Shown here: piece by piece, positions 46,087-63,196 of the stretch
Layout of the letters: every line of letters begins with the position of its first letter
Numbering within the stretch: the stretch's first letter is position 1
Assembly: GCA_016181405.1 (NCBI GenBank)
Contig: JACOZJ010000003.1
Location: forward strand, 42,749 to 106,748
DNA length: 64,000 nucleotides
Source of the DNA: Candidatus Wildermuthbacteria bacterium
GTDB taxonomy: Bacteria > Patescibacteriota > Minisyncoccia > Minisyncoccales > UBA10102
Direction: 5' to 3'
Notes under the pieces: generated by a model
What the model was told of the DNA's origin: nothing
The model's database searches: none
What the model saw: the letters and a program-made list of their open reading frames with translations, nothing else
Translations under genes and position numbers: made by a program

Positions 46087-46260
46087 AGCCAATTGACTAG
46101 TTATACCACAAAACAAAAACCCCCTCAACAGGGAAGTACCCCAAGCGCTTAAGCCACGGAAAAGTTTGACTTTTTATCGGTAGCGTGTTAGTGTATCGCC
46201 AGCACTTGCTGGTGGGAAAACCCTTAAATTGTATAGCCAGCAAGAAGGAAGGTGGTTCCG

Positions 46261-46545
46261 ATGTCAAAGAAATTCCTGGTAATCTTGGCGCTCGTAGCCG
46301 TCCTGGCGGCCGTATTGGTTCTTCCAGGACAGGGAGCCGACGCACGGCAGAAGCGTTCGGCCTTCCAGGTGACCTCGGTAGGGATACAGCGCTCTGACAC
46401 GGGCACATGGCTAGAGAGCCACGTTGATCTGAATGTGCTGTCCATCCGGATACGGCCGGCCGCAAACCAGGATGGAGTCGCGGTCACTATCGTAGACACG
46501 TCGGGAAACGTCGTCTACGACGGAACGCCAGGCACCAAGAACTAG
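46261..46545 (+). CDS. Hypothetical small secreted protein (94 aa)
   Basis: AGGAAGGTGG SD; MSKKFLVILALVAVLAAVLVLPGQGA is a signal-like N-terminus. Confidence 0.65.
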   Translation: MSKKFLVILALVAVLAAVLVLPGQGADARQKRSAFQVTSVGIQRSDTGTWLESHVDLNVLSIRIRPAANQDGVAVTIVDTSGNVVYDGTPGTKN

Positions 46546-46584
46546 CTCCAGCGCCCTGTAGTAGAAGCACCTAATACCCAGAAA

Positions 46585-46829
46585 CGGGCAGGGCAGGCGA
46601 CGAGAAGTCCAAACCTTCTTTCGCCTGCTCACTCTCATTGAGTGCATCAAGGAATTGGTGGATTCAACAGGAGTTCCAGTACTTTTAAATACACATCCGC
46701 CGCTTCATAGCGGCGAAACGGACATTACCGCAGAAACGCTTAAAACAATTGATTGAAAGAAGTGAAAACGAGTAGTAGTGTTCGTCTCGCCGCTATGGAG
46801 CAGGCAATCTCTCTAAGGAGAAGACATCT
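46585..46829 (+). promoter_or_regulatory. Structured intergenic RNA module, copy 1
   Basis: Stem-loop 46585-46628. Local GCCGC-TTCATA-GCGGC hairpin. CATAGCGGCGA (46706-16) is complementary to TCGCCGCTATG (46787-97). Homologous to the copies at 54346 and 55091. Confidence 0.6.
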
Positions 46830-46871
46830 ATGGAGAACAAATTTGTGGATTTTTATAGAAACAAAACCTGA
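46830..46871 (+). CDS. Possible 13-aa micro-ORF (MENKFVDFYRNKT) downstream of module copy 1
   Basis: AAGGAG SD 8 nt upstream. The stop lies inside the terminator stem. It may not be translated. Confidence 0.25.
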   Translation: MENKFVDFYRNKT

Positions 46872-46893
46872 CAGTTGCTGTCAGGTTTTGTTT
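46863..46893. terminator. Bidirectional terminator aaaacctgacag-ttg-ctgtcaggtttt shared with dnaE
   Basis: Perfect 12-bp stem flanked by A-run and T-run. Confidence 0.75.
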
Positions 46894-49595
46894 TAGGAGG
46901 CTACGATTTCCTCGACTTCTTCGGCGAGGAATTTTTTTTCGCCGTCGCGGCTATCGAGACGACCAGTTACAAACACCATTTTATTTTCTTGCAGAGCGGT
47001 CGGATAGCGCTCGATAACCGAAGGAAACACCACAACCTCGATACGATCGGTTAAATCCTCCAAGGCAACAAAAAGCATGGGTTTGCCACTTTTGGTAATA
47101 ATTCTTTTCACCGAAGAAATAATACCTCCAATGCGCAAGCGCTCGCGTTGCCGGCTAAACTGAAACTTGTATCGCGTATTTTGAATCTCCTGCACCGCCT
47201 CTTGCAGCGAACGGATCGCCAGCGCCCTACTTTCCAAAATGTTTTTGATCGCTTTCAAAGGATGAGAAGTTACATATAATCCCAGCAATTCCTTTTCCCA
47301 TAGCAAAAGCTCTGACTCTTTTGCGGGTTCTGTAGCTTCCAGCACGAGTGAAGAGTGATTCTGTTCTGCCGGCTGGCTGTCGAACAAGCCTTTTTGCCCG
47401 TTGGCTTTTGTTTTCTGATTTTCACGCGCAACGGTAAGCAATCGCTCCATGTTTTTTAGGAGCTGGTTACGCTCGCCGAACTGATCGAATACGCCGGCTT
47501 TTACCATGCTTTCCATCGATTTCTTGTTCAAATCTTTTGTTGCCACGCGGGTCACAAAATTTTGAATCGCCAGATAAGGGCCATCTGCCTTACGTTCTTG
47601 AATAATAGACGCCACAATCCCTTCGCCCACGTTTTTGATGGCCAATAGCCCAAAGCGAATCTGATTTTTTGCCGGCACGGCAGAAAAAAAGGCGAAGCTC
47701 TCGTTTACGTCGGGAGGCAACACTTCAATACCCATTTTTCGCGTTTCCTCAATCAAGAACGCGATGCGTTCAACATCGTTGCGTTCCGAAGTTAGAAGAG
47801 CAGACATATATTCCAAAGGATAGTTCGCTTTAAGCCACGCGGTTTGGTAGGCGATGGTGGCGTAGCACGCCGCATGGCTCCTATTGAAACCATAGCTCGC
47901 GAAAGGCTCAATAAAATCAAAAACACTCTCCGCGATTTTCTTTGAAGTTCCAGCTGCGACTGCTCTCTCCACAAATTTTACTTTTTGCTCCTCTAAGAGC
48001 GTCTTTATTTTTTTCCCAATGGCCTTGCGGAGAATGTCTGCCTCTCCATAGGAAAATCCGGCGAGTTCACGCGCTATCTGCAGAATTTGTTCCTGGTACA
48101 CGGCAATCCCATACGTATTGCGTAAAATGGGTTCTAGTTTTGGATGCAAATACCGAATTTCTTTTTCTCCATGCTTGCGGGCAATATAGTCGGGTATAAG
48201 TTCCATCGGACCTGGCCGATAGAGCGCAACCATGGCAATAATGTCTTCAAACTCGGTTGGCTTCAATTCTTTTAAGTATCTTCTCATCCCGCCGCTTTCC
48301 AGTTGGAACACCCCGGTTGTATCGCCCGCCTGCAAAAGCTTGTACACTTTTGGATCATTCAAAGGGATAGTATCGATATCAATATTTTTGCCGCGAATGG
48401 CGTATATGCGCTTGAGTGTTTCTTCAATAATGCTCAAGTTTTTCAGCCCCAAAAAATCCATTTTTAAAAGGCCGATGTCTTCCACGCTGTGCATTTCGTA
48501 TTGGGTAACTATCGCCTCATCGTTTTGCGTGGGGTGCTGCAAAGGCACGCGCGTATCCAAGGGTTCTGCCGCAATCACCACCCCGCAAGCGTGCGTGGAA
48601 GCGTGCCGCGCGACACCCTCGAGCTTTTTGCCCAAATCAATTAAACGTTTGGCTTTTTCATCTTCCTCGTATAGAGCTTTGAATTCATCCACTTGCTCCA
48701 ATGCTTCCTCGAGCGAAGAACCAAAGGGAATCAGTTTTGCCGCGCGGTCACAGTATCCATACTCATATTCGAGCGCGCGCCCTACATCGCGTATCACGGC
48801 GCGCGAGGCCATTGTTCCAAATGTAATAATTTGCGCCACGCGATCCCGCCCGTATTTTTGAGCCACGTATTCTATAACTTCGTCGCGCCTTGTGTCTGCA
48901 AAATCCAAATCAATGTCCGGCAGAGAAACGCGTTCTGGATTCAAAAATCGCTCGAACAAAAGTTTATAGCGAATAGGATCAACGTTTGTAATCTTGAGCA
49001 AGTACGCCGCGATAGATCCAGCGGCAGATCCGCGGCCCGGCCCCACCACAATGCGGTTTTGCTTTGCCCAGTTCACAAAATCCTGCACAATTAAGAAGTA
49101 GGCGGCAAATCCGGTTTGGAGAATCACGTCGAGCTCATATTCCAGCCGTTTTACAGCATCTCCCGAATCGGTGTATTGCGGCTTTTCCTTCAACCCCTCG
49201 TAGCAAAGTTCGCGGAGATATGCGTCGGCAGTTTTCCCTTCAGGAAGAGGAAATTTGGGCAAAAGATTTTTCCCAAGTACAAGCTCCAGATTGCAGGCTT
49301 CGGCTATGACTTGCGTATTTGTTAAAGCTTCTGGAACATCTTTGAAAAGCTCTGCCATTTCTTCTGCGCTTTTTAACGAGAAATCATCATGCTTGAGCGT
49401 CAGGCGTTCCTCATCGCTATTCTTCGCCCCGGTATTAATAAGCATTAAAATATCCTGTGCTTCTGCGTCATCTTTTCGCAGATAGTGCGAATCGGCGGTT
49501 GCCACCAACGGAATACCAGTACGCTTGGAAATTGCAATCAATTCTTTGTTTACTGTTTCTTGTTCTTTGATATTCGGATGATTCTGCAGCTCCAA
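46893..49595 (-). CDS. dnaE: DNA polymerase III alpha subunit, main body (from ...YLELQNHP onward)
   Basis: ...ELQNHPNIKEQETVNKELIAISKRTGIPLVATADSHYL...PGPMELIPDY... In this frame the homology extends upstream to IFGKGNYY, but the only in-frame start is a TTG. Confidence 0.85.
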   Translation of the reverse strand: MELQNHPNIKEQETVNKELIAISKRTGIPLVATADSHYLRKDDAEAQDILMLINTGAKNSDEERLTLKHDDFSLKSAEEMAELFKDVPEALTNTQVIAEACNLELVLGKNLLPKFPLPEGKTADAYLRELCYEGLKEKPQYTDSGDAVKRLEYELDVILQTGFAAYFLIVQDFVNWAKQNRIVVGPGRGSAAGSIAAYLLKITNVDPIRYKLLFERFLNPERVSLPDIDLDFADTRRDEVIEYVAQKYGRDRVAQIITFGTMASRAVIRDVGRALEYEYGYCDRAAKLIPFGSSLEEALEQVDEFKALYEEDEKAKRLIDLGKKLEGVARHASTHACGVVIAAEPLDTRVPLQHPTQNDEAIVTQYEMHSVEDIGLLKMDFLGLKNLSIIEETLKRIYAIRGKNIDIDTIPLNDPKVYKLLQAGDTTGVFQLESGGMRRYLKELKPTEFEDIIAMVALYRPGPMELIPDYIARKHGEKEIRYLHPKLEPILRNTYGIAVYQEQILQIARELAGFSYGEADILRKAIGKKIKTLLEEQKVKFVERAVAAGTSKKIAESVFDFIEPFASYGFNRSHAACYATIAYQTAWLKANYPLEYMSALLTSERNDVERIAFLIEETRKMGIEVLPPDVNESFAFFSAVPAKNQIRFGLLAIKNVGEGIVASIIQERKADGPYLAIQNFVTRVATKDLNKKSMESMVKAGVFDQFGERNQLLKNMERLLTVARENQKTKANGQKGLFDSQPAEQNHSSLVLEATEPAKESELLLWEKELLGLYVTSHPLKAIKNILESRALAIRSLQEAVQEIQNTRYKFQFSRQRERLRIGGIISSVKRIITKSGKPMLFVALEDLTDRIEVVVFPSVIERYPTALQENKMVFVTGRLDSRDGEKKFLAEEVEEIVAS

Positions 49596-49972
49596 ATAAT
49601 AATTCCCTTTGCCGAATATATGTAATAGAAACCGTCCAGGTGGGCGCGAGTTAAGAGTTTTACGATATTTTGATATCCCTTTTCGTTTTTAGCTAGAAGA
49701 ATCAAATGGTAAATTGTGTCGTCCACGCCTGGACGCTTGTCTGCCATACTTTCAAACGCCAAATAAATTTCGCATCCCAAAATAGGTTTAATGCCTTTTG
49801 CTTTCGCTTTTTTGTAGAACTCCACCGCGCCATAGAGGTTGCCGTGATCGGTTAGAGCCACCGAGTTCATGGTAAGCTCCTGCACCCTATCCAAAAGCTG
49901 GTCTATTTTCGGCAGACCATCGAGAAGCGAGTAGTGAGAATGGACGTGTAAGTGAGTAAAGCTTTGCCCCAT
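49550..49972 (-). pseudogene. dnaE: dnaE N-terminal PHP-domain fragment in a different frame (frameshift plus internal deletion relative to intact DnaE)
   Basis: MGQSFTHLHVHSHYSLLDG...LLAKNEKGYQNIVKLLTRAHLDGFYY, then out-of-frame junk. It overlaps the main ORF by 46 nt. Confidence 0.7.
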
Positions 49973-52241: not shown

Positions 52242-52706
52242 ATGTTAACAATTCGTTTATTTCGCGTAGGAAGGAAAAATCAGCCGGCGTTTAAGATTGT
52301 CGTCTGCAATAAGCAAAACGCCGCTTCAAGGGGACGCTTCGTGGAGGAAGTGGGTTTTTACGATCCCTTAACTAAACAGCGCAACCTAAAAGGGGATAGG
52401 GTAAAATACTGGTTATCCGTAGGCGCAAAAGCTTCTCCCACGGTTCACAATATGCTTGTGACAGATAAAGTGGTGGAAGGCTCCAAAATCGCCAAACACA
52501 AACTCTCCAAGAAGCCTGCCTCGCCAGCAGGGGAGTCTGTAGCGTCTGAAACAAACCAAAGCGGGAAGTCAGCCGATACGGCCCCGGAAGCACCAAAAGC
52601 CCAGGAATCAGCTCCACAAAGCGCTCCTGCTCAAGAAACCACCCCTGAAGCGCCAAAACCCGCTGAAGAGCCTAAGCCTGCCGAAACGCAGGAAAAACAG
52701 CCTTAA
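52242..52706 (+). CDS. rpsP: 30S ribosomal protein S16 with a Pro/Ala/Glu-rich C-terminal extension
   Basis: MLTIRLFRVGRKNQPAFKIVVCNKQNAASRGRFVEEVGFYDP... Confidence 0.93.
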   Translation: MLTIRLFRVGRKNQPAFKIVVCNKQNAASRGRFVEEVGFYDPLTKQRNLKGDRVKYWLSVGAKASPTVHNMLVTDKVVEGSKIAKHKLSKKPASPAGESVASETNQSGKSADTAPEAPKAQESAPQSAPAQETTPEAPKPAEEPKPAETQEKQP

Positions 52707-52770
52707 AGCTCAAACTCCTCAATTCTTGTCCCGCCGTAGCTTTAAGCCAAGGCGGATAGCCTTATACACT

Positions 52771-52795
52771 CCCACCAACCCTTTGGTGGGTTCTT
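52771..52795 (+). terminator. rpsP terminator cccacca-accctt-tggtggg plus TTCTT
   Basis: 7-bp GC stem followed by a short T-run. Confidence 0.5.
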
Positions 52796-52822
52796 GACAT
52801 TTTTGGGGAAGTATGCTATACT
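52794..52822 (+). promoter_or_regulatory. Consensus promoter TTGACA-N17-TATACT
   Basis: Perfect -35 element, 5 of 6 in the -10 element, 17-nt spacer. Confidence 0.65.
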
Positions 52823-53164
52823 GTGGCTAACAATAAAATACTGGTTTTGCGGGTGGAAGGAGAGAGCCACCGGCAAATAATAAAGACACAGACGATTGCA
52901 CATATCACAATTACCCAATCAGCTCTCCCCAAAAGGAGAGTTGGTTGTTTAGAGAATGTCCTGCCTCTGCGAATATAAAGATACTCCCGGAGGTAGCACA
53001 TTCAAAACATCACAGCACCTTAACCATCAAGCAAGGGGGAAGAGGAACAGAAAATTCTTCCCCCATACCCTTCAGCCCACCACGAGTATCGAATGGCGAA
53101 TTGAAGGGTAACGATAGCACCCAAAAATTTCCTTCCTGTAAAGGGAAGGGGAAAGGAGAGAGCC

Positions 53165-53275
53165 ATGGTGCACCGACCTCCACGCCCGGAGACGGTGATG
53201 ACGCTTCCGCTGCCGCGTTGCGGCTGCGGGGCACGCATCGCCCCGGGTGGCTACTGTACTGGAAAGTGCAAGTAG
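53165..53275 (+). CDS. Cys-rich micro-protein (36 aa: MVHRPPRPETVMTLPLPRCGCGARIAPGGYCTGKCK)
   Basis: Translated by hand. GGAAAGGAGAGAG SD 3 nt upstream. CxC...CxxxC pattern. Confidence 0.45.
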   Translation: MVHRPPRPETVMTLPLPRCGCGARIAPGGYCTGKCK

Positions 53276-53283
53276 CCCTCAAC

Positions 53284-53388
53284 GGAGTCGGAGGAAAAGC
53301 ACTCATTGATTGCACTCATAGCATACTCTCCGACTCCTTAAGTTTAAGACCGTTGCGAAAAGCGCAGATCATAGATTTAAGGAGTCGG
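53284..53388 (+). promoter_or_regulatory. Three-segment alternative-hairpin element (1:2 versus 2:3)
   Basis: ggagtcggag (53284-93) pairs with ctccgactcc (53328-37). ccgactccttaa (53330-41) pairs with ttaaggagtcgg (53377-88). The two pairings are mutually exclusive. Confidence 0.5.
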
Positions 53389-53420
53389 ATAGATTGCGCA
53401 CCTTATGAAAGGAGGACGCC

Positions 53421-53606
53421 ATGGAAAGGCTCAATCAATCCCAAATCCGGGCCGCCCATTGGAAGATTGGAGTGAGGGGACCCGTAAACGGGTTACTCAC
53501 TCCAAGGAAACTCGCCCGGGTTTACGGAGTTAGTCCGAGCGAGACAAGAATCATCGTGTTGTCGGTATTCGTGTACCGCGCGCGGGAATGGCTTTGCCCC
53601 CGATGA
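53421..53606 (+). CDS. Small putative helix-turn-helix protein (61 aa)
   Basis: AAAGGAGG SD; ...LTPRKLARVYGVSPSETRIIV... looks like an HTH. Confidence 0.5.
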   Translation: MERLNQSQIRAAHWKIGVRGPVNGLLTPRKLARVYGVSPSETRIIVLSVFVYRAREWLCPR

Positions 53607-53872
53607 GAGCGTGCACAATCCCAGCAACCAAGCCCTGGCCCTGCGAGATCTACCAAGATTTCGCAGGGCACCCCAACTGAATCCCGAATTCATTTCGAGA
53701 TTCAACAGGGGTTAGTACATAAAAATCCATTCGTCTTCAGCGATTTGGCCAAGGCACTTGACTGAATCGTTGGAGACGAGAAGTATGGTGAGATGCGATT
53801 CGTCGAAGACCTCTTCTTGAGTGTCGAAGAACGACAAAGAAAACTCACGAAGAGTGCCAAGAAAGGCAGAAA

Positions 53873-54307
53873 ATGTCTATGTCTATACCGACGATGCTGG
53901 CGGGGCTGGCGGGGCTGGTGGTAGCGGGGATGCTGGTGGGGATGCTGATCTCCATCATCGTATGGACGGATCGGCGCCCGTCGTTCAAGACCGTGTTTGG
54001 TTTCAAGCCTCAGAACCGCAAGAGGCCTTGGTCGTCAGCGCTTCGTGCAGCGGAACAGAAAAAGGTGGCTACTGTGCTGAGTCGGTTAGCACAGACCTTT
54101 GCCACGTGCGACAAGACCGAGAGGGAGATGAAGATTGAACTCCCTGCGGATGGGGAGTTCGAGAAATGGCATACGGAACAGCGTAAACGCCTCGCGGATT
54201 TGAGGCGGGAGCTGAAAACCGCGAAGGAAGGTTTCTGGCGGGCCTATGCGCTCGCCGAGAAACAGGAATTCAGTGTACAGCGGAAGTACACTGACTACCT
54301 CCCCTAG
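53873..54307 (+). CDS. Hypothetical membrane-anchored protein (N-terminal TM helix, charged coiled C-terminus)
   Basis: MSMSIPTMLAGLAGLVVAGMLVGMLISIIVW... Preferred over the overlapping 53821-54138 frame. Confidence 0.55.
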   Translation: MSMSIPTMLAGLAGLVVAGMLVGMLISIIVWTDRRPSFKTVFGFKPQNRKRPWSSALRAAEQKKVATVLSRLAQTFATCDKTEREMKIELPADGEFEKWHTEQRKRLADLRRELKTAKEGFWRAYALAEKQEFSVQRKYTDYLP

Positions 54308-54345
54308 CGCGACCACTAAGTAGAAGGATGCGTCTCACCACGCAT

Positions 54346-54578
54346 TCTGGGCGGGAGAACAAAGGTTCAATCCCTTTCTCTCCCGCCCCCATACTTGAGC
54401 TCATGAATAAGTTCGTGGGCTGAAGAGTGGATAGCACTTTCAAAACTACAGCCGCTTCATAGCGGCGAAATGCCCTTCCGTAGCTTTATGCGAAGGAGGA
54501 CAGCTCGCTGCTATGGAAAGCGGCCTTCCGTAAACCCTCACCCTCAGCAAAAGGAGAGGTAGGAAGAGGAGAACAAGA
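54346..54578 (+). promoter_or_regulatory. Structured intergenic RNA module, copy 2
   Basis: Stem-loop 54346-54389 with a TTCAATC loop followed by CCA. GATAGCACTTTCAAAAC box. CATAGCGGCGA (54458-68) pairs with TCGCTGCTATG (54505-15). Confidence 0.6.
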
Positions 54579-54962
54579 ATGACCATGAAATCTTTCGCGG
54601 CATTGGACTGGACGTTTTCAGGCCCGGCGCGCCGGGTTACTCTCGAGTTCCCGTGCGAGACCCCTGAGGAGGCGCGGGTCCTCCTGCGGGCGGAGCATGA
54701 GGCCCGCAAGGACAAGGCATTGGAGGAAATCAAGGCCCATCCCCGCATGAAGCAGATTGGATGGGCAGGGGATCACGTCACTCCGGTAATGGGGCCCGTG
54801 CCCCCTTGGGAGGATTCCCGGTACCCAGGGTCCCTCTGCGTCGGCATCCCCAACGTGGATGCCGAGGTCGGGGTCCAAGTCGGATCCGGGATGGGAGAGA
54901 CGGACCGGATATACCGCATTGAGGCGGTGCCGGGGGGCGGCACGCGCGCCGTGCGTGTCTGA
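54579..54962 (+). CDS. Hypothetical protein (127 aa)
   Basis: GGAAGAGGAG SD; no recognisable motif. Confidence 0.55.
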   Translation: MTMKSFAALDWTFSGPARRVTLEFPCETPEEARVLLRAEHEARKDKALEEIKAHPRMKQIGWAGDHVTPVMGPVPPWEDSRYPGSLCVGIPNVDAEVGVQVGSGMGETDRIYRIEAVPGGGTRAVRV

Positions 54963-55090
54963 CGCAAGAGAAGACCAGGCTGGGGGTGAAGCCGGCCAAA
55001 AAGAATAGTTTCCCAGTATCATGAAACTGGGGGCGCTGACCACGGCGCCATACAGCAGTGGGAGGTCGTTCTGCCCGAGGCGGAAGGACC

Positions 55091-55366
55091 TAAGGCGAGA
55101 GAGGAAGGTTAATCCCTTTCTCTCCCGCCCCATACTTGAGCTCATGAATAAATTCGTGGGCTGAAGAGTGGATAGCACTTTCAAAACCACAGCTGCTTCA
55201 TAGCGGCGAAATGAACATTTCCGTCTCATCGACGGATATGCCGACGAGGCATAAACCAGAAACGCTCAAGATGCATGAAAGAAATGATTTGGAGTGGAAA
55301 ACAGAGTTAGTGTTCAGCTCGCTGCTATAAAGTGGCAAATCTTGAGCCTGAGAGCAGGAGGAGAAC
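55091..55366 (+). promoter_or_regulatory. Structured intergenic RNA module, copy 3
   Basis: The first ~120 nt are about 95% identical to copy 2. ATAGCGGCGA (55200-09) pairs with TCGCTGCTAT (55319-28). The insert shares blocks with copy 1. Confidence 0.6.
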
Positions 55367-55561
55367 ATGAAAAAAAACGCCTTGTCGACGATCTTCCTAG
55401 TCGGTTTTTCCCTCGTGGGCGCTTTCGGGGGCGCCCTCGGAGGGGTCAGTGTCAGCGCTCTCATTGGTATTAACCCAAACACTGCCGCCCTATGGGGCGG
55501 TATCGTCGGTGCCATCGCTATGACGGCGGTGGCGGTCCTCAGCATCAATAGGTGGAAATAA
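55367..55561 (+). CDS. Glycine-zipper small hydrophobic protein (64 aa)
   Basis: GGAGGAG SD; ...LVGAFGGALGGVSVSALIG...LWGGIVGAIAMTAVAVL... Confidence 0.65.
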   Translation: MKKNALSTIFLVGFSLVGAFGGALGGVSVSALIGINPNTAALWGGIVGAIAMTAVAVLSINRWK

Positions 55562-55591
55562 AACGCAAGGAGATAACCTTTCGTGCAATAA

Positions 55592-55640
55592 GGTAGGGAG
55601 GCGAACGGTTCTATTCCGCTTCCTCCCTACCACTTTCTTG
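55592..55640 (+). terminator. Stem-loop ggtagggagg..cgg-ttctatt-ccg..cctccctacc, same architecture as the module stem-loops
   Basis: 10-bp stem, internal loop, 3 bp and a 7-nt loop, followed by ACTTTCTT. Confidence 0.5.
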
Positions 55641-55731
55641 CGTACAGCTGTGATCTACTCTCTCCTCCGCCTCACCGGCGGATCCATCATAGCTGTACAC
55701 AAGAGAGAAATACTTTTCCACTTCTCAAATA

Positions 55732-55759
55732 TTGACAGGATGGCACGCAGTGCTAGACT
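55732..55759 (+). promoter_or_regulatory. Promoter TTGACA-N16-TAGACT (TG immediately upstream of the -10 region)
   Basis: Read directly from the sequence. The track ORF 55732-55935 begins at the TTG of this -35 box. Confidence 0.55.
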
Positions 55760-55944
55760 ATCCTAATTTCACAGCATGCACCCTCGAACGTGATGCGGAA
55801 ATGGGGGATGGATTGGCAAGGAGTATTGATTCTTTGGCAATCCCGTCCCTGTTTCGTACCACAATTCAGCGGCAGGGAGGAGAGGAGGTACAACTTGAAA
55901 GTCTAAAATACAAATCAACGCGTTCTTTTTCATAAACGAGGAGG

Positions 55945-56097
55945 ATGACGATGCAATCGAATAGAGGGAGAATCCGGGGATGCCTGGGTCAGACCTATGC
56001 CTCTCCGATTCAGCCGAAGCGCTTTCGGCCGCAGCGCCCCCGCGCGTCGCATCGCCGGAAGCCCATCGTCAAGATCATCCTGATCTCCAACACGTAA
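55945..56097 (+). CDS. Highly basic 50-aa protein (MTMQSNRGRIRGCLGQTYASPIQPKRFRPQRPRASHRRKPIVKIILISNT)
   Basis: Translated by hand. GAGGAGG SD. An 11-bp stem hairpin follows at 56121-56157. Confidence 0.45.
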   Translation: MTMQSNRGRIRGCLGQTYASPIQPKRFRPQRPRASHRRKPIVKIILISNT

Positions 56098-56172
56098 CCT
56101 CGTTGGCGCCCGATAACCCCAACAACCCCTCGGATTGTGGTACATCCGAGGGGTTCATCATTTGTGTGGGGG

Positions 56173-56200
56173 TTGACACTATTTTTTGATCGTGTATACT
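56173..56200 (+). promoter_or_regulatory. Consensus promoter TTGACA-N16-TATACT
   Basis: Read directly from the sequence. Confidence 0.6.
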
Positions 56201-56206
56201 CAATCG

Positions 56207-56342
56207 TACATAAATATGAACTCACGCTATCTTTTCTGCATGTGTCTTTGTGCCAGCCCAGAGAAGAGTCTGCGTGTTTCGCGTTAAGACATTTTGTTAT
56301 TTGAAACCAGCCAGCCTCTTCTCTTCAGGGGCTGGTTTTTTG
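56207..56342 (+). ncRNA. Candidate ~135-nt sRNA bracketed by a consensus promoter and a strong terminator (contains an SD-less 23-codon ORF)
   Basis: Promoter at 56173-56200. Terminator aaccagcc...ggctggtt plus TTTTT at 56305-56342. Confidence 0.4.
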
Positions 56343-56419
56343 TAGCTTGGCAGAGACTCAAAACCCATTGTGCGTCTCTGCCAGGAAACAATCCTGGAAT
56401 ACAGAAAGGAGAAAGGGAA

Positions 56420-56740
56420 ATGGCCAGAATAATAGGAGTGTTTGAAGGCCCAACTTCCCTACAGGAAGTCTTCGGCAGAAACGTGCCGAACAGAAGGTCT
56501 TTTGAATCGTACGAAGACCTTCTCAAAGCCCTCAAGGAGGGGCTGCTTGACGGCATCGTCATACCGGAGAATCTCGTCAGCAGAACTTTCGTGGCAGCGC
56601 AAATGGGGTTGATACAGTGCGTGCGTGGATTCGCGTATATCAAGCCGTCGCTCGAGATACGGGTCCGCCGCGCGCGAAGCCGCATGCACGAACGCCGCGC
56701 TTGGCGAGAGTATACGCCGCCCCGGCGCCTTCCCTGTTAA
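56420..56740 (+). CDS. Hypothetical 106-aa protein resembling the N-terminal part of a prephenate-dehydratase or periplasmic-binding-protein type-2 fold (fragment?)
   Basis: AAAGGAGAAAGGG SD; MARIIGVFEGPTSLQEVF...SFESYEDLLKALKEGLLDGIVIPENLVS... Confidence 0.45.
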   Translation: MARIIGVFEGPTSLQEVFGRNVPNRRSFESYEDLLKALKEGLLDGIVIPENLVSRTFVAAQMGLIQCVRGFAYIKPSLEIRVRRARSRMHERRAWREYTPPRRLPC

Positions 56741-56759
56741 CCTGCACCTTACAACGTAG

Positions 56760-56792
56760 AAGCCCCGCCTTTATGGCAGGGGCTTTCTTTTT
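56760..56792 (+). terminator. Intrinsic terminator aagccccgcc-tttat-ggcaggggctt plus TTCTTTTT
   Basis: GC stem with one bulged A, followed by a T-run. Confidence 0.65.
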
Positions 56793-56796
56793 GGGG

Positions 56797-56825
56797 TTGA
56801 CAAACCCGAGAGACAGAAATAACAT
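56797..56825 (+). promoter_or_regulatory. Promoter TTGACA-N17-TAACAT upstream of khpA
   Basis: Read directly from the sequence. Confidence 0.5.
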
Positions 56826-56869
56826 AAAGAAAAGTCGAATAGCAGAAAGTTACAGAATTCAGAATTCAA

Positions 56870-57178
56870 ATGGCAGAAGAGACACCTCAGTACCAAGCAT
56901 TGCTCGAGTATATCGTGAAATCCTTGGTGGACAATCCGAACGACGTAACGGTAGAACGCAAAGTAGATGAAATGGGCGTACTGCTTTCTTTGAAAGTGCA
57001 CGCTCAAGACATGGGTCAAATAGTCGGCCGACAGGGTTCTACCGCGCGAGCAATTCGCACATTGGTTCGCATCGCGGGCCTCAAAGCTCACGCACGGGTA
57101 AACCTCAAGATTGAAGAGCCAGAAGGCGGCCGCGGCCCCCGAAAGAGCGAAGAACCTCTTGCGGGGTTGAACATCTAA
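56870..57178 (+). CDS. khpA: KH-domain RNA-binding protein (KhpA/YlqC, UPF0109)
   Basis: ...LLEYIVKSLVDNPNDVTVERKVDEMGVLLSLKVHAQDMGQIVGRQGSTARAIRTLV... Confidence 0.88.
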   Translation: MAEETPQYQALLEYIVKSLVDNPNDVTVERKVDEMGVLLSLKVHAQDMGQIVGRQGSTARAIRTLVRIAGLKAHARVNLKIEEPEGGRGPRKSEEPLAGLNI

Positions 57179-57243
57179 ACGAAAATTAGAACTTGAAATC
57201 TGCAAGAACGGTGTTACGATAGGGTAATGCCGTTTTTGTTTAT

Positions 57244-57945
57244 ATGAAATTCGATATCATCACCATATTTCCGCAAATTTTTGATTCCTATTTTGCCGAG
57301 TCACTTTTGAAACGCGCCCAAGAAAAAAAACTTCTTGAGATTCGCGTACACAATCTGCGCGATTGGACCGAAGACTCCCACAAAACAGTGGACGACAGCC
57401 CATTCGGCGGGGGATTGGGAATGGTAATGAAAATTGAGCCGATCTACAAGGCCGTAATAGGCCTAAAGTCTCAAGGATCAAACTCCAAGGCCCAAGCAAA
57501 CCCTAAGTTTCCAAACCTCAAACAACGCGTTATCCTTTTCACGCCGAGGGGAAAGAAATTTACGCAACGAAAGGCGCACGAATATGCAAAGCTCGACCAA
57601 CTTATTATGATCTGCGGCCGATACGAGGGAGTCGATGAGAGAGTAGGGAAGTATATTGCAGACGAGCAACTCTCTATAGGGGATTATGACTTAATGGGTG
57701 GGGAGCTTCCTGCAATGATTGTAGTGGAAACTGTTTCGCGCTTAATTCCCGGCGTTATTGGCAAAGAAGAATTTCTGAAAGAGCATATAAAAGATGGGGG
57801 ATTTATAGAATATCCACAGTACACGCGGCCTGAAGTATTTGTGGATGCAAAAAGGAAAAAACGAACTGTACCACAAGTATTGCTATCCGGAAATCACAAA
57901 AAAATTGAAGAGTGGCGGCAAAGACACGAAAAGCTCATCAAATGA
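57244..57945 (+). CDS. trmD: tRNA (guanine37-N1)-methyltransferase
   Basis: MKFDIITIFPQIFDSYF...DDSPFGGGLGMVMK...CGRYEGVDERV... Confidence 0.93.
   Translation: MKFDIITIFPQIFDSYFAESLLKRAQEKKLLEIRVHNLRDWTEDSHKTVDDSPFGGGLGMVMKIEPIYKAVIGLKSQGSNSKAQANPKFPNLKQRVILFTPRGKKFTQRKAHEYAKLDQLIMICGRYEGVDERVGKYIADEQLSIGDYDLMGGELPAMIVVETVSRLIPGVIGKEEFLKEHIKDGGFIEYPQYTRPEVFVDAKRKKRTVPQVLLSGNHKKIEEWRQRHEKLIK
57464..57525. repeat. Possible degenerate family-B-like insertion in trmD (encodes KSQGSNSKAQANPKFPNLKQ)
   Basis: Extra loop relative to the usual TrmD ...AV....VILLSP... spacing. The peptide resembles the thrS insert. DNA similarity is weak. Confidence 0.35.
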
Positions 57946-57986
57946 TTGAAAAATGCGGGAAAACGTGGTAGGATATGCGAGGTAAA

Positions 57987-58069
57987 GCGTGGATGGCAGA
58001 GCGGTCAATTGCATGTGGCTGTAAACCACACGCCTTCGGGCTACGGGGGTTCGAATCCCTCTCCACGCA
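57987..58069 (+). tRNA. tRNA-Tyr (GUA) with long variable arm, CCA not encoded
   Basis: Acceptor GCGUGGA/UCCACGC-A, anticodon loop CUGUAAA, 14-nt variable arm, T-loop UUCGAAU. Confidence 0.9.
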
Positions 58070-60256: not shown

Positions 60257-60535
60257 ATGCGGACCGCAGAAGAAATCACAATGCGCTCCAAACCCATCCT
60301 TGATCAACCGGACATTGTCTCGCTGGTTGAGAAGAGTAGCAGTCCCACGGCGGTCTATGACATGGTTATGGACGCCACGGGAAATGACGAAACCGCGAAA
60401 GCAGCTCGTTGGCTCGGGGTGTTGCGTAGGGATTATCCCGATCGTTACGTTGAGCTTATCCGCAGCACGACCCATCATGTTCCGGAGAATACGATGAAGA
60501 AAGAAGATGATGATGAAACTACTGAATTCTGCTGA
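60257..60535 (+). CDS. Hypothetical acidic protein (92 aa)
   Basis: GGAAGGAG SD. The 3' end overlaps the ATGATGATG start of the next gene by 29 nt. Confidence 0.5.
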   Translation: MRTAEEITMRSKPILDQPDIVSLVEKSSSPTAVYDMVMDATGNDETAKAARWLGVLRRDYPDRYVELIRSTTHHVPENTMKKEDDDETTEFC

Positions 60536-61835
60536 ACTCTTGAGTTACGTTGCAAGCGGAACTCGGGTTGAATTCTGCGGTTGGGTGAAAGCCCGACGCA
60601 AATACAAAGAAATCGTTTTCTTGGATGTTTGCGATTCCGCAGGAGTAGTCCAGGTCGTGATCGATAAAACCAATGAAGAATTGTTCGAACTGGCAAGACA
60701 GATCAACCAGGAAACGGCAGTAAAGATTGCTGGAATCCTCACGGAGACTGGACGACCCAGTCCCCCAAAGGAAATTTGTGTTCAGGAGATCGAAATCCTC
60801 GGCGCTAGCACAATAAACGTGTCGCCCTATCCACGTTCAAACATTGATATTTTTGATCCAAGGCTTCAAGAACAGCTTTTGGAGAATCGACATTTCTATC
60901 TTCGCAATGAAAAGATTGCGGCGATTCTGAAATTCCGGTACATGCTCACGCGGATCGTGCATCAATGGTTCTATGAGAATGGATTCATCGAGATTCACGC
61001 TCCCGTGCTTACTCCTACTCCATTGTACGATGATAGTACTGCGATCGGGCTTACGGTGCATGAACAGGAGGTGTATCTTACGCAATGCGTTGGATTCTAT
61101 CTTGAACAAGCAGTCCACGCCTTCGAAAAAATCTACAACATCGGCCCCAGCTTCAGAGCCGAAGAGAGTCGCTCCAAAAGACATCTCATGGAGTACTGGC
61201 ATGTCAAGGCCGAGCTGGCGTTCGTGGATTTCGAGGACATGGTTGCAACAGTGGAACGGTTCATCCGAGACGTTAGTGAACAAAGCATCCGTCAAGGAAA
61301 CGAGTTTACCCGTGTTATTGGCACTGAAATGTGCCGTGACGGACTGAAAACTCCGTTTCCGCGTATTGACTACGGGGAGGCGATAGATTGGCTCAAGAAA
61401 CAAGGATCTGATATCGAGTTTGGTAAAAGTTTGGGCTCCGATGAGGAATCCTTGCTTAGCAATCGATTCGGCGAAACTCCGTTTTGGGTTGTTAGTATTC
61501 CGCGTTCCATCGAACCTTTTCCGTATGTGCTTAATCCGAACGATCCTCGTTGTACGAAGACAGCTGACTTGATCGCAAGTAGGGGGTTCGGTGAACTTCT
61601 CGGAGTTGCAGAGAAAATTCATACTCTCCCCATGCTTGACGAACGTCTCCAGGAAAAAGGGAAAGGCGACGACCCGCGCTATGAATGGCTGCGGGAATTA
61701 CGTCAGTATGGTTGTGTGCCTCATGGCGGATTCGGTATGGGACTGGAACGACTCATTCGTTGGTTTTTGCAGATTCCGCATGTAAGGGACACCATTCCTT
61801 TCCATCGAGCGTTCGGCAGAAGGATTAACCCCTGA
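60507..61835 (+). CDS. asnS: Asparaginyl-tRNA synthetase (class IIb)
   Basis: N-terminal OB-fold (VEFCGWVKARRKYKEIVFLDV...). Motif 2 FRAEESRSKRHLMEYWHVKAELAF. Motif 3 GGFGMGLERLIRW. An alternative TTG start lies at 60540. Confidence 0.8.
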   Translation: MMMKLLNSAELLSYVASGTRVEFCGWVKARRKYKEIVFLDVCDSAGVVQVVIDKTNEELFELARQINQETAVKIAGILTETGRPSPPKEICVQEIEILGASTINVSPYPRSNIDIFDPRLQEQLLENRHFYLRNEKIAAILKFRYMLTRIVHQWFYENGFIEIHAPVLTPTPLYDDSTAIGLTVHEQEVYLTQCVGFYLEQAVHAFEKIYNIGPSFRAEESRSKRHLMEYWHVKAELAFVDFEDMVATVERFIRDVSEQSIRQGNEFTRVIGTEMCRDGLKTPFPRIDYGEAIDWLKKQGSDIEFGKSLGSDEESLLSNRFGETPFWVVSIPRSIEPFPYVLNPNDPRCTKTADLIASRGFGELLGVAEKIHTLPMLDERLQEKGKGDDPRYEWLRELRQYGCVPHGGFGMGLERLIRWFLQIPHVRDTIPFHRAFGRRINP

Positions 61836-61888: not shown

Positions 61889-63196
61889 ATGGAACGAACT
61901 TTGATCAAAGAACTCGGATCTAAGGATGGTGAAACCATTCGGATCTGCGGATGGGTAGAAGTCATCCGTGACCAAAAGCGAATGCAGTTTCTCATCGTCC
62001 GTGACCACACCGGCAGCGTCCAGGTGATCCATGACAAGTCGGCGAACTCTGAGCTGACGGCAATCATTGGTGGCCTTACTTCCGAAAGCGCCGTCGAAAT
62101 TACGGGCAGAGTCATTCTGAACCCAATGGTCAAGCTGGGCGGTCTGGAAGTGGAGGCTAAATCGGTATCCGTCGTCAATAAGGCGGACTCTCTGTTGCCG
62201 CTTGGCGATAACCCAAGCAGCGATACCCGACTGGACTGGAGATTCTTGGATCTGCGATCTCCACGAAACCTGTTGGTCTTCAAGATCCAGACCCTGGCTG
62301 AACACGCCATGCGTTCGTTCTGGAAATCGGAGGGATTCATCGAAATCCATTCTCCGAAGTTCATGGGCAGCGCGAGCGAATCGGGCGCGGAGCTCTTCGA
62401 AGTGAAGTACTTCGATCGTAAGGCGTATCTCGCTCAGTCGCCGCAGTTCTACAAGCAAATGGGGATGGCGGCTGGTTTCGACCGCGTGTTCGAGATTGGC
62501 CCTGTGTTCCGCGCAAACCCCTCATTCACGTCTCGCCACGACACCGAGTTCACGAGCGTTGACGTCGAAATCTCGTGGATTGACTCCCACGAGGACGTCA
62601 TGCAGCTTGAAGAGCGTTGGCTTCGCCACGTGCTTCAGGCGGTGAAAGCCGAGTACGGCGAGAAGGTCAAGGCGATGTTTGGCACGGAGATCATGGTTCC
62701 CGAGCTTCCGTTTCCGCGCGTGACAATGGCCGAGGCGTACGAAATCCTCGACCAGATAGGTCATCATATCGAGCGGGGCGAAAAGGGCGACCTCGATCCA
62801 GAGGGTGAACGGCTTTTGTGTCGGCACTTTCATGAGAAGACCGGCCATGAGTTCGTTTTCGTCACGGAGTATCCCTCGGTGGTCCGGGCGTTCTACCACA
62901 TGCGTCCCGAAGGCAAACCCCATCTCACCAAGAGCTTCGACCTTCTCTGGAAGGGGCTTGAAGTGACGACGGGGGCGCAACGGGAGCATCGCTACGAGAT
63001 CCTGGTGGAGCAAGCCAAGGAGAAGGGACTCTCGCTTGAGCCCATCCAGTACTATCTGGATTTCTTCCGCTACGGCTGCCCACCTCATGGCGGCTACGGC
63101 TTCGGCCTTACCCGCATGCTCATGGTGATGCTGGGTGCGAAAAGCGTGCGCGAAGTGACGTACCTCTATCGAGGCGTCAACCGACTCACTCCGTAA
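61889..63196 (+). CDS. aspS: Aspartyl-tRNA synthetase, archaeal/eukaryal-type short form
   Basis: ...IRICGWVEVIRDQKRMQFLIVRD...QSPQFYKQM...FRANPSFTSRHDTEFTSVDVE...GGYGFGLTRMLM... Confidence 0.85.
   Translation: MERTLIKELGSKDGETIRICGWVEVIRDQKRMQFLIVRDHTGSVQVIHDKSANSELTAIIGGLTSESAVEITGRVILNPMVKLGGLEVEAKSVSVVNKADSLLPLGDNPSSDTRLDWRFLDLRSPRNLLVFKIQTLAEHAMRSFWKSEGFIEIHSPKFMGSASESGAELFEVKYFDRKAYLAQSPQFYKQMGMAAGFDRVFEIGPVFRANPSFTSRHDTEFTSVDVEISWIDSHEDVMQLEERWLRHVLQAVKAEYGEKVKAMFGTEIMVPELPFPRVTMAEAYEILDQIGHHIERGEKGDLDPEGERLLCRHFHEKTGHEFVFVTEYPSVVRAFYHMRPEGKPHLTKSFDLLWKGLEVTTGAQREHRYEILVEQAKEKGLSLEPIQYYLDFFRYGCPPHGGYGFGLTRMLMVMLGAKSVREVTYLYRGVNRLTP

Follow-up and report, generated by a model that had tools for sequence, protein, structure and literature searches.

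Structured sense-strand repeats behind a conserved promoter in a variable gene island of Candidatus Wildermuthbacteria

What lies behind a consensus-like promoter that opens onto some 340 nucleotides (nt) devoid of a convincing gene? The question is raised by positions 52794-53275 of a 64,000-nt stretch of Candidatus (Ca.) Wildermuthbacteria DNA (contig JACOZJ010000003.1; the whole stretch is hereafter the window). Here an earlier note, made from the sequence alone, had described a promoter, a hairpin-rich leader with copies of the boxes of a repeated module and a terminal, Cys-rich open reading frame (ORF) of 36 codons, proposed as a zinc-knuckle micro-protein, a precursor of the ribosomally synthesized and post-translationally modified peptide (RiPP) kind, or a regulatory leader peptide. 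Our comparison with related loci indicates that this stretch is the left (5') end of a lineage-specific, fast-changing island of small ORFan genes and not the leader of a housekeeping gene. It comprises a conserved promoter-leader unit (PL) and a copy of a structured repeat, module M, found on the sense strand between and after the island genes, whose set varies from lineage to lineage. The comparative evidence leaves us evenly divided on the overall reading that M would act as sense-strand RNA punctuation in a promoter-driven array of variable small genes. The answer to the original question is deflationary, in that no conserved product corresponds to the Cys-rich peptide, which is unlikely to be what matters in this region.

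Five further lineages (R, S, T, U and V) were obtained as contigs via homologues of an island membrane protein and of KhpA. The comparison covered one neighbourhood per genome, and the restriction of the repeats to the hotspot described here may thus partly reflect sampling. The nearest other genome is that of Ca. Wildermuthbacteria RIFCSPHIGHO2_01_FULL_48_27b (MHTS01000024.1), with ~94% identity in rpmF-rpsP. Exact matches to the S16 and KhpA sequences of the window came only from identical short contigs, each breaking inside repeats, and the population data of lineage R, with one single-nucleotide polymorphism across 13 contigs, held too little variation to use. Three element families, PL, M and a long-hairpin element (LH), were defined by nhmmer profiles plus a covariance model.

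The promoter-leader unit and the leader behind it

The promoter is of the sigma-70 type, CTTGACA-N17-(TGc)TATACT, at 52794-52822 on the + strand. It has a TG extension, matches the consensus at 11 of 12 positions and shares the top rank among the matches of the 12 kb scanned, so the first claim of the earlier note is borne out. Transcription is predicted to start at about 52829-52830. The promoter is identical in lineage R (contig L004), and its -35 and extended -10 boxes, both invariant, also occur at L027 8491 and 6263 (lineage S) and at L030 1014 (lineage T). When the window is aligned with R, similarity falls sharply 5' of the C that precedes the -35 box, which marks the left boundary of PL, and amounts to 95% from there through 52954.

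Two hairpins follow within the conserved segment. The stem of H-a (52846-52877; UUGC.GGUGG/CCACC.GCAA, with GGTGG/CCACC at 52852-56/52867-71) encloses a purine-rich loop resembling a Shine-Dalgarno (SD) sequence (AAGGAGAGAG), while H-b (52916-52947) is a 13-bp stem around CUCUCC-CCAAAA-GGAGAG (52923-52940); both lie on the + strand. Both stems vary by compensation. In L027 the H-a stem becomes UUGCUGUUGG/CCAAUAGCAA and the GGAGAGA loop is retained, the loop remaining GGAGAG-rich throughout, and H-b has homologues in L027 (AGCUCUCUCC/GGUGAGAGCU) and L030 (ACAGCUCUC/GAGGGCUGU). Promoter, H-a and H-b form the portable unit PL. It follows rpsP in the window, in lineage S and, as a weak copy (nhmmer E 0.003), in V; in R it lies behind an AbiEii insertion. 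PL is also present in T. The first genes behind PL are unrelated from lineage to lineage. A promoter of the same type, CTTGACA-N17-TGcTATACT, stands upstream of rpmF at L027 6263-6470, followed by an LH element and a canonical terminator; this arrangement resembles a self-contained small-RNA gene some 170 nt long.

The leader behind the promoter is a composite. An 83-nt segment (52955-53037, + strand) is unique to the window lineage and absent from the L004 lineage; it has its own hairpin and is a 3' fragment of M, as seen in the similarity of GGTAGCACATTCAAAACATCACAGC to GATAGCACTTTCAAAACTACAGC and in a GRTAGCAC box at 52992. It is followed on the same strand by a complete M of what we call type B (53035-53127), made of hairpin H1 (GGGGGAAGA-N12-TCTTCCCCC, 53035-53064), hairpin H2 (53066-53110) and a single-stranded tail (AACGAUAGCACCCAAAA), with a second GRTAGCAC box at 53113; over window positions 53038-53129 this module is 88% identical to L004 3525-3614. 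A third hairpin, H3 (53128-53152, + strand; UUUCCUUCCU/GGGAAGGGGA, with CCTTCC-TGTAAAG-GGAAGG at 53131-53149), represents a ~19-nt insertion relative to R just 5' of the SD of the micro-ORF. Beyond this shared SD the window and R cannot be aligned, and similarity resumes only with the final ~30 nt of the micro-ORF and the structures that follow. Thus, the perfect hairpins at 52852-71, 52923-40, 53035-64 and 53131-49, both boxes and the presence of module copies in the leader, all claims of the earlier note, are upheld, the copies being a 3' fragment and a complete M.

The folding of 52829-53175 departs strongly from chance on the + strand (z = -7.9) and less so on the - strand (z = -4.9). With this folding and their recurrence with compensatory changes in other lineages, the features of the leader exceed chance. 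No gene emerged from it. The overlapping 176-aa frame (52945-53475), which the earlier note had kept as a possible real product, has no family match and is interrupted in the relative by the 83-nt and ~19-nt indels, and a 51-aa frame that begins with GTG at 52823 lacks this start in R. The description that stands is of a long, structured leader devoid of a gene. With Rfam 15, only tRNAs reached the gathering score in the whole window, an E-value scan of 52600-58000 returned chance-level matches (best E 0.85), and ARAGORN found no tmRNA or tRNA-like gene in the flagged region. LH elements are likewise absent from the flagged leader.

SD-like GGAGAG motifs occur three times in this leader, in the H-a loop (52852-52869), in the 3' arm of H-b (52935-52940) and in the SD region of the micro-ORF (53148-53165), the regions of the first and last being identical at 16 of 18 positions. 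The CUCUCC of the H-b 5' arm is complementary to these motifs, and the set may represent an SD mimic or an anti-SD device.

Module M and the long-hairpin element

Module M combines a hairpin of free sequence (H1), an abutting hairpin that is conserved and covaries (H2), and a conserved unpaired tail, RAUAGCAC...CAAAA. Variant tails read (G)AUAGCAC, AAAGUAC, UUAGUAC or CCAGUAC, followed by an A/U-rich run, for example UUUCAAAA. Sixteen copies from four lineages (window, R, T and V) each fold into the order H1-H2-tail, despite about eight unrelated H1 sequences. Besides the type-B copy, the window contains four others on the + strand: copy C (54349-54447; 105 bits), 41 nt past the stop of the gene for a 144-aa membrane protein; copy D (55093-55188; 94 bits), after a 127-aa ORF; a copy of the so-called 46k type (53637-53728), after a 61-aa ORF resembling a helix-turn-helix (HTH) protein and recognized by its fold and a covariance-model match (E 0.004); and one in a second, smaller island (46591-46692; 81 bits). 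The covariance model, R1, was trained without the type-B and 53637 copies and still detects both, the former at 53029-53130 (E 0.005). This makes real the parallel drawn in the earlier note between the leader and the repeats at 54349-54472 and 55097-55213, which are 97% identical over 86 nt. In the 64-kb window R1 matches these five copies and nothing else, which ties M to its two ORFan islands; more copies exist in related loci. The GRTAGCAC box occurs four times in the whole window, always on the + strand and within 2.2 kb.

Does M act as RNA or as DNA? The covariation of H2 was examined in 11 aligned copies (alignment A7), with partner-slide and 500-shuffle controls. Standard pairs are formed in 87% of cells, a share that falls to 32-46% on sliding the partner by 1-3 columns; changes on both sides affect 8 of the 17 pairs, and the covariation score of 0.357 (0.158 in shuffles) was reached by none of the 500 shuffles. 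Three pairs are U-G in most copies and would on the other strand be A-C mismatches. The + strand fold is the more stable one in 21 of 25 elements, and all full-length significant copies of M lie on the gene strand, the - strand matches being weaker partials inside the same copies. The position of M with respect to genes is also regular: it begins at a median of about 40 nt past the stop codon of the upstream ORF, and in lineage V (L037) a full-length copy stands behind four of five small ORFs, with a partial match behind the fifth.

Several other identities were considered for M and set aside. A promoter within M was rejected given the lack of a fixed -35/-10 spacing, and a likeness to hammerhead and C/D-box motifs because these are missing from the type-B copies. 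In copy C the H1 hairpin has a T-loop-like GGUUCAAUCC followed by CCA, yet tRNA mimicry was dropped since the loops differ in other copies. A terminator scan detected none on the + strand within 52794-53400 or at any of the M copies, the canonical ones being at 56124, 56309 and 56767. A strict module pattern retrieved one genome among genome contigs and only that same lineage among metagenome contigs, and scans of viral contigs gave no true copies, seven matches to an 18-nt LH box being the box alone.

The LH element has a different architecture and position. The copy at 55199-55330 (+ strand; nhmmer E 8e-21) is built on two stems, P1 (AGCGGCGA/TCGCUGCU) and P2 (GAACAUU/AGUGUUC), and sits in the 5' region of a 64-aa membrane ORF (55367-55561), the location typical of LH relative to downstream ORFs. 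Both stems are conserved, and the apical part is variable and can be deleted, to the point that in a mini copy at L037 9226-9279 the two stems alone remain. The window contains three copies, a short one being at 54450-54520, and more are found in related loci.

The third LH copy (46706-46800) follows M in the second island (46591-46800, + strand; in a wider sense 46130-46893), located between thrS and dnaE, both on the - strand. For the + strand of this region we also recorded a promoter-like site, a 13-aa ORF and a bidirectional terminator. A 94-aa ORF (46261-46545) with a signal-peptide-like N-terminus, and so secreted-looking, precedes M. The arrangement of this second island is repeated in lineage R (L012 719-928).

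The micro-ORF and the competing explanations

The micro-ORF itself (53165-53275, + strand) is as the earlier note described it, with an ATG start behind a strong SD (53153-53160; AAGGAGAG, also given as GAAAGGAG) and four Cys in the C-terminal half of the 36-aa peptide. A search of 1.84 billion representative proteins gave no homologue of the peptide, the lone match being a repetitive 532-aa protein (E 6e-5), and behind the same SD lineage R has an unrelated 26-aa ORF (VNTYFVVNGLVFTKREDAVAYKQSCK) with a GTG start and one Cys. A conserved Cys-rich product of the RiPP or zinc-knuckle type is therefore not supported; the conservation check proposed in the earlier note fails in the closest relative, where, despite ~94% identical flanks, the peptide is not conserved and the Cys positions differ. 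Searches of the island ORFs with Pfam, PHROG, PADLOC and NCBIfam identified no modifying, maturation, transport or immunity genes near the micro-ORF.

The conserved features are instead an SD with a start codon, which directly follow M in both the window (ATG) and L004 (GTG), and the nucleotides at the end of the frame. Both ORFs share the ending TGCAAGTAG, which is the 3' arm of a conserved hairpin (53249-53277, formed by the last ~30 nt of the window ORF) and stops 7-8 nt 5' of the first of three covarying arms on the + strand (53284-53389). These arms, X (53284-53293; GGAGTCGGAG), Y (53328-53337; CTCCGACTCC) and Z (53381-53389; GGAGTCGGA), read GGGATCGGGG, CTCCGATCCC and GGGATCGGA in L004, so that all three change together between lineages. 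Y and Z form an 18-bp hairpin (53329-53346 with 53372-53389) with four two-sided compensatory and two wobble changes, and X and Y an alternative pairing of 11-12 bp. No U-tract follows X:Y or Y:Z, and neither contains an SD or a start codon. The micro-ORF regions are strongly folded (z -3.1 and -6.1), and in L004 the SD and start codon are occluded.

How might these parts work together? If M serves as RNA punctuation, PL would start + strand polycistronic transcription into the island, through a leader that in this genome has been lengthened by repeats, an M 3' fragment and then a complete M. M would act as sense-strand RNA and punctuate the polycistronic transcript: H1 and H2 might shield the 3' end of the upstream RNA, the conserved unpaired tail could be a cleavage or protein-binding site, and the 5' end of the following cistron would be under the protection or control of H3 or LH. 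On this view, positions 52829 to 53127 or so (~300 nt) would give a processed leader or a small RNA ending in M, and the 36-aa ORF, the first translatable frame behind M, might be an incidental or non-specific upstream ORF. Of the specific cleavage model we are less confident than of RNA punctuation in general.

Several points weigh against this reading. The promoter, the polycistron and any cleavage are features that we infer from comparative sequence evidence, and no nuclease or binding protein is linked to M. Lacking a U-tract, M does not qualify as a canonical terminator. In lineage R, neither the leader nor the type-B M folds better on the + than on the - strand, and the strand argument is thus weakest for the flagged copy itself. 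The sample consists of five to six lineages, all from one genus-level group, and some M copies are paralogues, so that copy counts are not independent. Finally, the alternation of ORFs and M, together with the cassette differences between close relatives, would suit a role in DNA-level recombination equally well.

That last possibility deserves separate consideration. M might be a DNA-level recombination site and the island an integron-like array of cassettes, each an ORF with a 3' M, expressed from PL and shuffled by a recombinase encoded elsewhere. A single strong promoter at one end, genes in one orientation, the regular alternation of ORF and M, and a content that varies between genomes with ~94% identical flanks as M is kept at the boundaries are all to be expected from such an array, as is the presence of M beside ORFan genes only, within the DNA examined. 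Homology between lineages stops at the CAAAA box of the tail, and in the L004 lineage two copies 95% identical over 229 nt flank a 4.3-kb, five-gene segment. Yet an integrase or other recombinase was recognised neither among the ten larger neighbours of the island whose ORFs were tested nor in the gene tables of related loci; attC-type RYYYAAC...GTTRRRY cores were not visible by eye in 16 copies on both strands, nor was any AAC/GTT core pair; M forms two hairpins instead of one imperfect palindrome; no cassette was seen at two positions or in distant lineages alike; and the sense-strand G-U pairs and better + strand folds point to RNA. We consider a DNA cassette system unlikely on balance. Slightly less probable still, in our view, is that PL, M and LH represent palindromic repeats of a selfish or neutral nature, akin to repetitive extragenic palindromes and bacterial interspersed mosaic elements (REP/BIME), BOX or miniature inverted-repeat transposable elements (MITEs), accumulated in a tolerant hotspot, with the leader as repeat debris. 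The mosaic of fragments and complete copies, the indel ends that fall inside repeats, the restriction of copies to variable regions, and the ~25-nt inverted ends of LH (21/25 identical), of which a deletion derivative is known, fit this proposal. It accounts less well for orthologous copies that preserve pairing by compensatory changes after divergence, for full-length copies that are all on the gene strand with regular spacing to upstream stop codons, or for the neighbourhood examined, in which no transposase, target-site duplication or core-intergenic copy was seen.

Two further proposals concern the micro-ORF. It could be a regulatory upstream ORF, in which a ribosome at the stop codon would cover X, so that Y pairs with Z instead of X and the downstream RNA is altered; this is compatible with RNA punctuation by M. 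The retention of SD and start codon in both lineages, the common ending just before X, the covariation of the three arms and the compensated Y:Z pairs speak for such a switch, and free variation of the peptide would fit if the act of translation alone matters. Nevertheless, neither pairing is a U-tract terminator or sequesters an SD or start codon, in L004 nothing translatable lies 3' of Z, the ORF region folds on itself, with its start occluded there, the joint change of the three arms could equally stem from concerted evolution of a palindromic repeat, and two ORFs of 26-36 codons behind an SD could be due to chance (by a rough, uncomputed estimate, a few per thousand jointly). We deem the switch a doubtful explanation. 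A functional zinc-knuckle or RiPP precursor peptide regulated by the leader strikes us as very improbable: beyond the strong SD, the ATG and the four Cys, it can invoke another Cys-rich ORF, of 38 aa, in the L004 island, but on sequence grounds it appears largely refuted by the lack of conservation, the sister-lineage ORF being unrelated, with one Cys, and partner genes for maturation, transport or immunity being absent.

Comparisons with known systems place the elements between two groups: in behaviour they most resemble REP/BIME, BOX and Correia repeats, and in organisation integron arrays. For REP/BIME, pneumococcal BOX, Neisseria Correia and ERIC elements, stabilisation of the mRNA upstream or cleavage by RNase III or RNase E has been established or proposed. 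Like M and LH, these elements are short (about 30-150 nt) hairpin repeats, mosaic in structure, located between or after operon genes and, as would hold for the island too, co-transcribed with them; with five M and three LH copies in the window, M and LH are multi-copy palindromic intergenic units, as REP/BIME and MITE repeats are. In contrast, the sequences are unrelated, the copies here are confined to ORFan islands in the DNA examined instead of spreading over core intergenic regions, all are on the gene strand, M has an unpaired tail and a sequence-free H1, and no REP-associated tyrosine transposase (RAYT) or other transposase was seen. Integron arrays (Pc plus ORF-attC units, and clusters of attC sites lacking integron-integrases, CALINs) share with the island an end promoter and small, mostly ORFan genes on one strand, each with a structured repeat of ~100 nt; the island, too, consists of same-strand, promoterless cassettes behind one promoter, and its gene content differs between close relatives and strains. 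They differ in the attC cores and bulged palindrome, in the G-U signal that M shows on the sense RNA and in the absence here of cassettes shared between lineages; neither IntI nor attI was found, the tested neighbours being housekeeping genes and the related loci being free of a recombinase.

For the micro-ORF the natural comparison is leader attenuation of the trp, erm and cat type, with which it shares, in the window and in the L004 lineage, a short ORF with an SD in a long leader and, near the stop codon, the mutually exclusive pairings X:Y and Y:Z. Unlike those leaders it has no terminator U-tract or hidden downstream SD, its peptide is not conserved, and conserved regulatory codons are missing. 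PL recalls putative mobile promoters, being a promoter and 5' untranslated region that, in at least four lineages, precede first genes unrelated to one another, with a related promoter driving LH upstream of rpmF in L027; it mostly stays downstream of rpsP, however, and so may be an ancestral local promoter and not a mobile one. Assignment of the elements to integrons, intrinsic terminators or any Rfam family was rejected in each case, assignment to attenuators appears doubtful in that there is no effector hairpin, and the literature searched contained no description of PL, M or LH. They are best called lineage-specific structured intergenic repeats.

Bacteria of the Candidate Phyla Radiation (CPR), most of them uncultured, possess streamlined genomes of very small size, and their regulatory RNAs and modes of gene gain are little understood. 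Here, hotspot gene sets, in which several products look like membrane or secreted proteins, are all organised by the same three sense-strand elements behind a conserved promoter. If the elements are RNA processing or stability signals, they would constitute a new family of motifs and a potential handle on gene expression in these organisms; if they are recombination sites, a new kind of cassette system. That M, with LH and PL, amounts to an undescribed CPR system, either RNA punctuation insulating cistrons or integrase-independent, integron-like cassettes with M as exchange site, is a speculative proposal to which we give a low probability. If true, either form would account for the way in which tiny genomes acquire small, lineage-specific proteins of the membrane or secreted kind, and express them, at one fixed hotspot within a ribosomal-protein operon.

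The rpsP-khpA hotspot and neighbouring genes

The main island (52707-56796, + strand, ~4.1 kb) is an insertion in the conserved rpsP-khpA-trmD operon of groundwater Ca. Wildermuthbacteria (CPR, Parcubacteria). It is flanked by rnhB, rpmF, nusB, rnc and rpsP (52242-52706) on the left and by khpA (56870-57178, its promoter from 56797) and trmD (57244-57945) on the right, followed by a tRNA cluster. G+C reaches 66% compared with about 47% in the flanks, and long ORFs are few. The genes interspersed with the repeats are the 61-aa HTH-like ORF (53421-53606), the 144-aa membrane protein gene (53873-54307), the 127-aa ORF (54579-54962) and the 64-aa membrane ORF. None of the small island ORFs has a significant match in Pfam, PHROGs, PADLOC or NCBIfam, the best being sub-threshold Pfam or PHROG hits (E 0.05-0.09), and the same databases gave no significant match for the island proteins of lineage R. 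The 127-aa ORF, between M copies C and D, has a strong SD and a G+C of 66% (genome ~47%), and its place is taken in sister lineage R by the 38-aa Cys-rich ORF, which clearly points to a foreign origin or to the replacement of a cassette.

The size and content of the rpsP-khpA space differ in every lineage. It spans about 8-10 kb in R (L004-L026), with an AbiEii toxin-antitoxin pair and then an island, 1.6 kb with two ORFs in S (L027/28), about 10 kb with many small ORFs in T (L030), 0.6 kb of spacer only in U (L033-35) and 3.2 kb with five small ORFs in V (L036-38). An all-against-all comparison of island ORFs across lineages revealed no shared cassettes except the membrane protein, common to the window and R at 51% amino-acid identity, and an ancestral block. 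The interval is thus a hotspot whose set of small ORFan genes changes from one lineage to the next. The R insertion (L004 1880-3310, equivalent to L011 7850-9300) lies between rpsP and the PL promoter and contains an AbiEii-type nucleotidyltransferase toxin gene with a small upstream ORF, and a DUF4325/STAS-like gene on the opposite strand; the hotspot therefore also takes up toxin-antitoxin or defence genes.

The ancestral spacer block (window 55686-56177 and 56369-56416) is 77-80% conserved in R and U, and in U it makes up essentially the entire spacer (L033 9389-9872). It contains a promoter, TTGACA-N16-TAGACT, at 55732, a long hairpin (GGGGATGGATTG...CAATCCCGTCCC), the terminator at 56124 and a small Pro/Arg-rich ORF (55945-56097), and may represent a separate small RNA or leader.

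Other genes of the window showed some peculiarities. The dnaE gene (- strand, 46893-49972) appears split into a 900-aa ORF (46893-49595) and an overlapping 140-aa PHP-domain ORF (49550-49972); in related genomes it is a single gene of 1039-1218 aa (mostly 1073), and the split could reflect an error of assembly, a frameshift or a case of programmed frameshifting. The S16 protein encoded by rpsP has 154 aa, with the Pfam S16 domain at residues 8-65 and a long C-terminal tail of low complexity, in which Pro, Ala, Glu and Lys abound and which diverges between lineages. Farther downstream, two paralogous class II aminoacyl-tRNA synthetase genes of the Asp/Asn/Lys type (tRNA-synt_2 plus OB fold) stand in tandem at 60507-61835 and 61889-63196.

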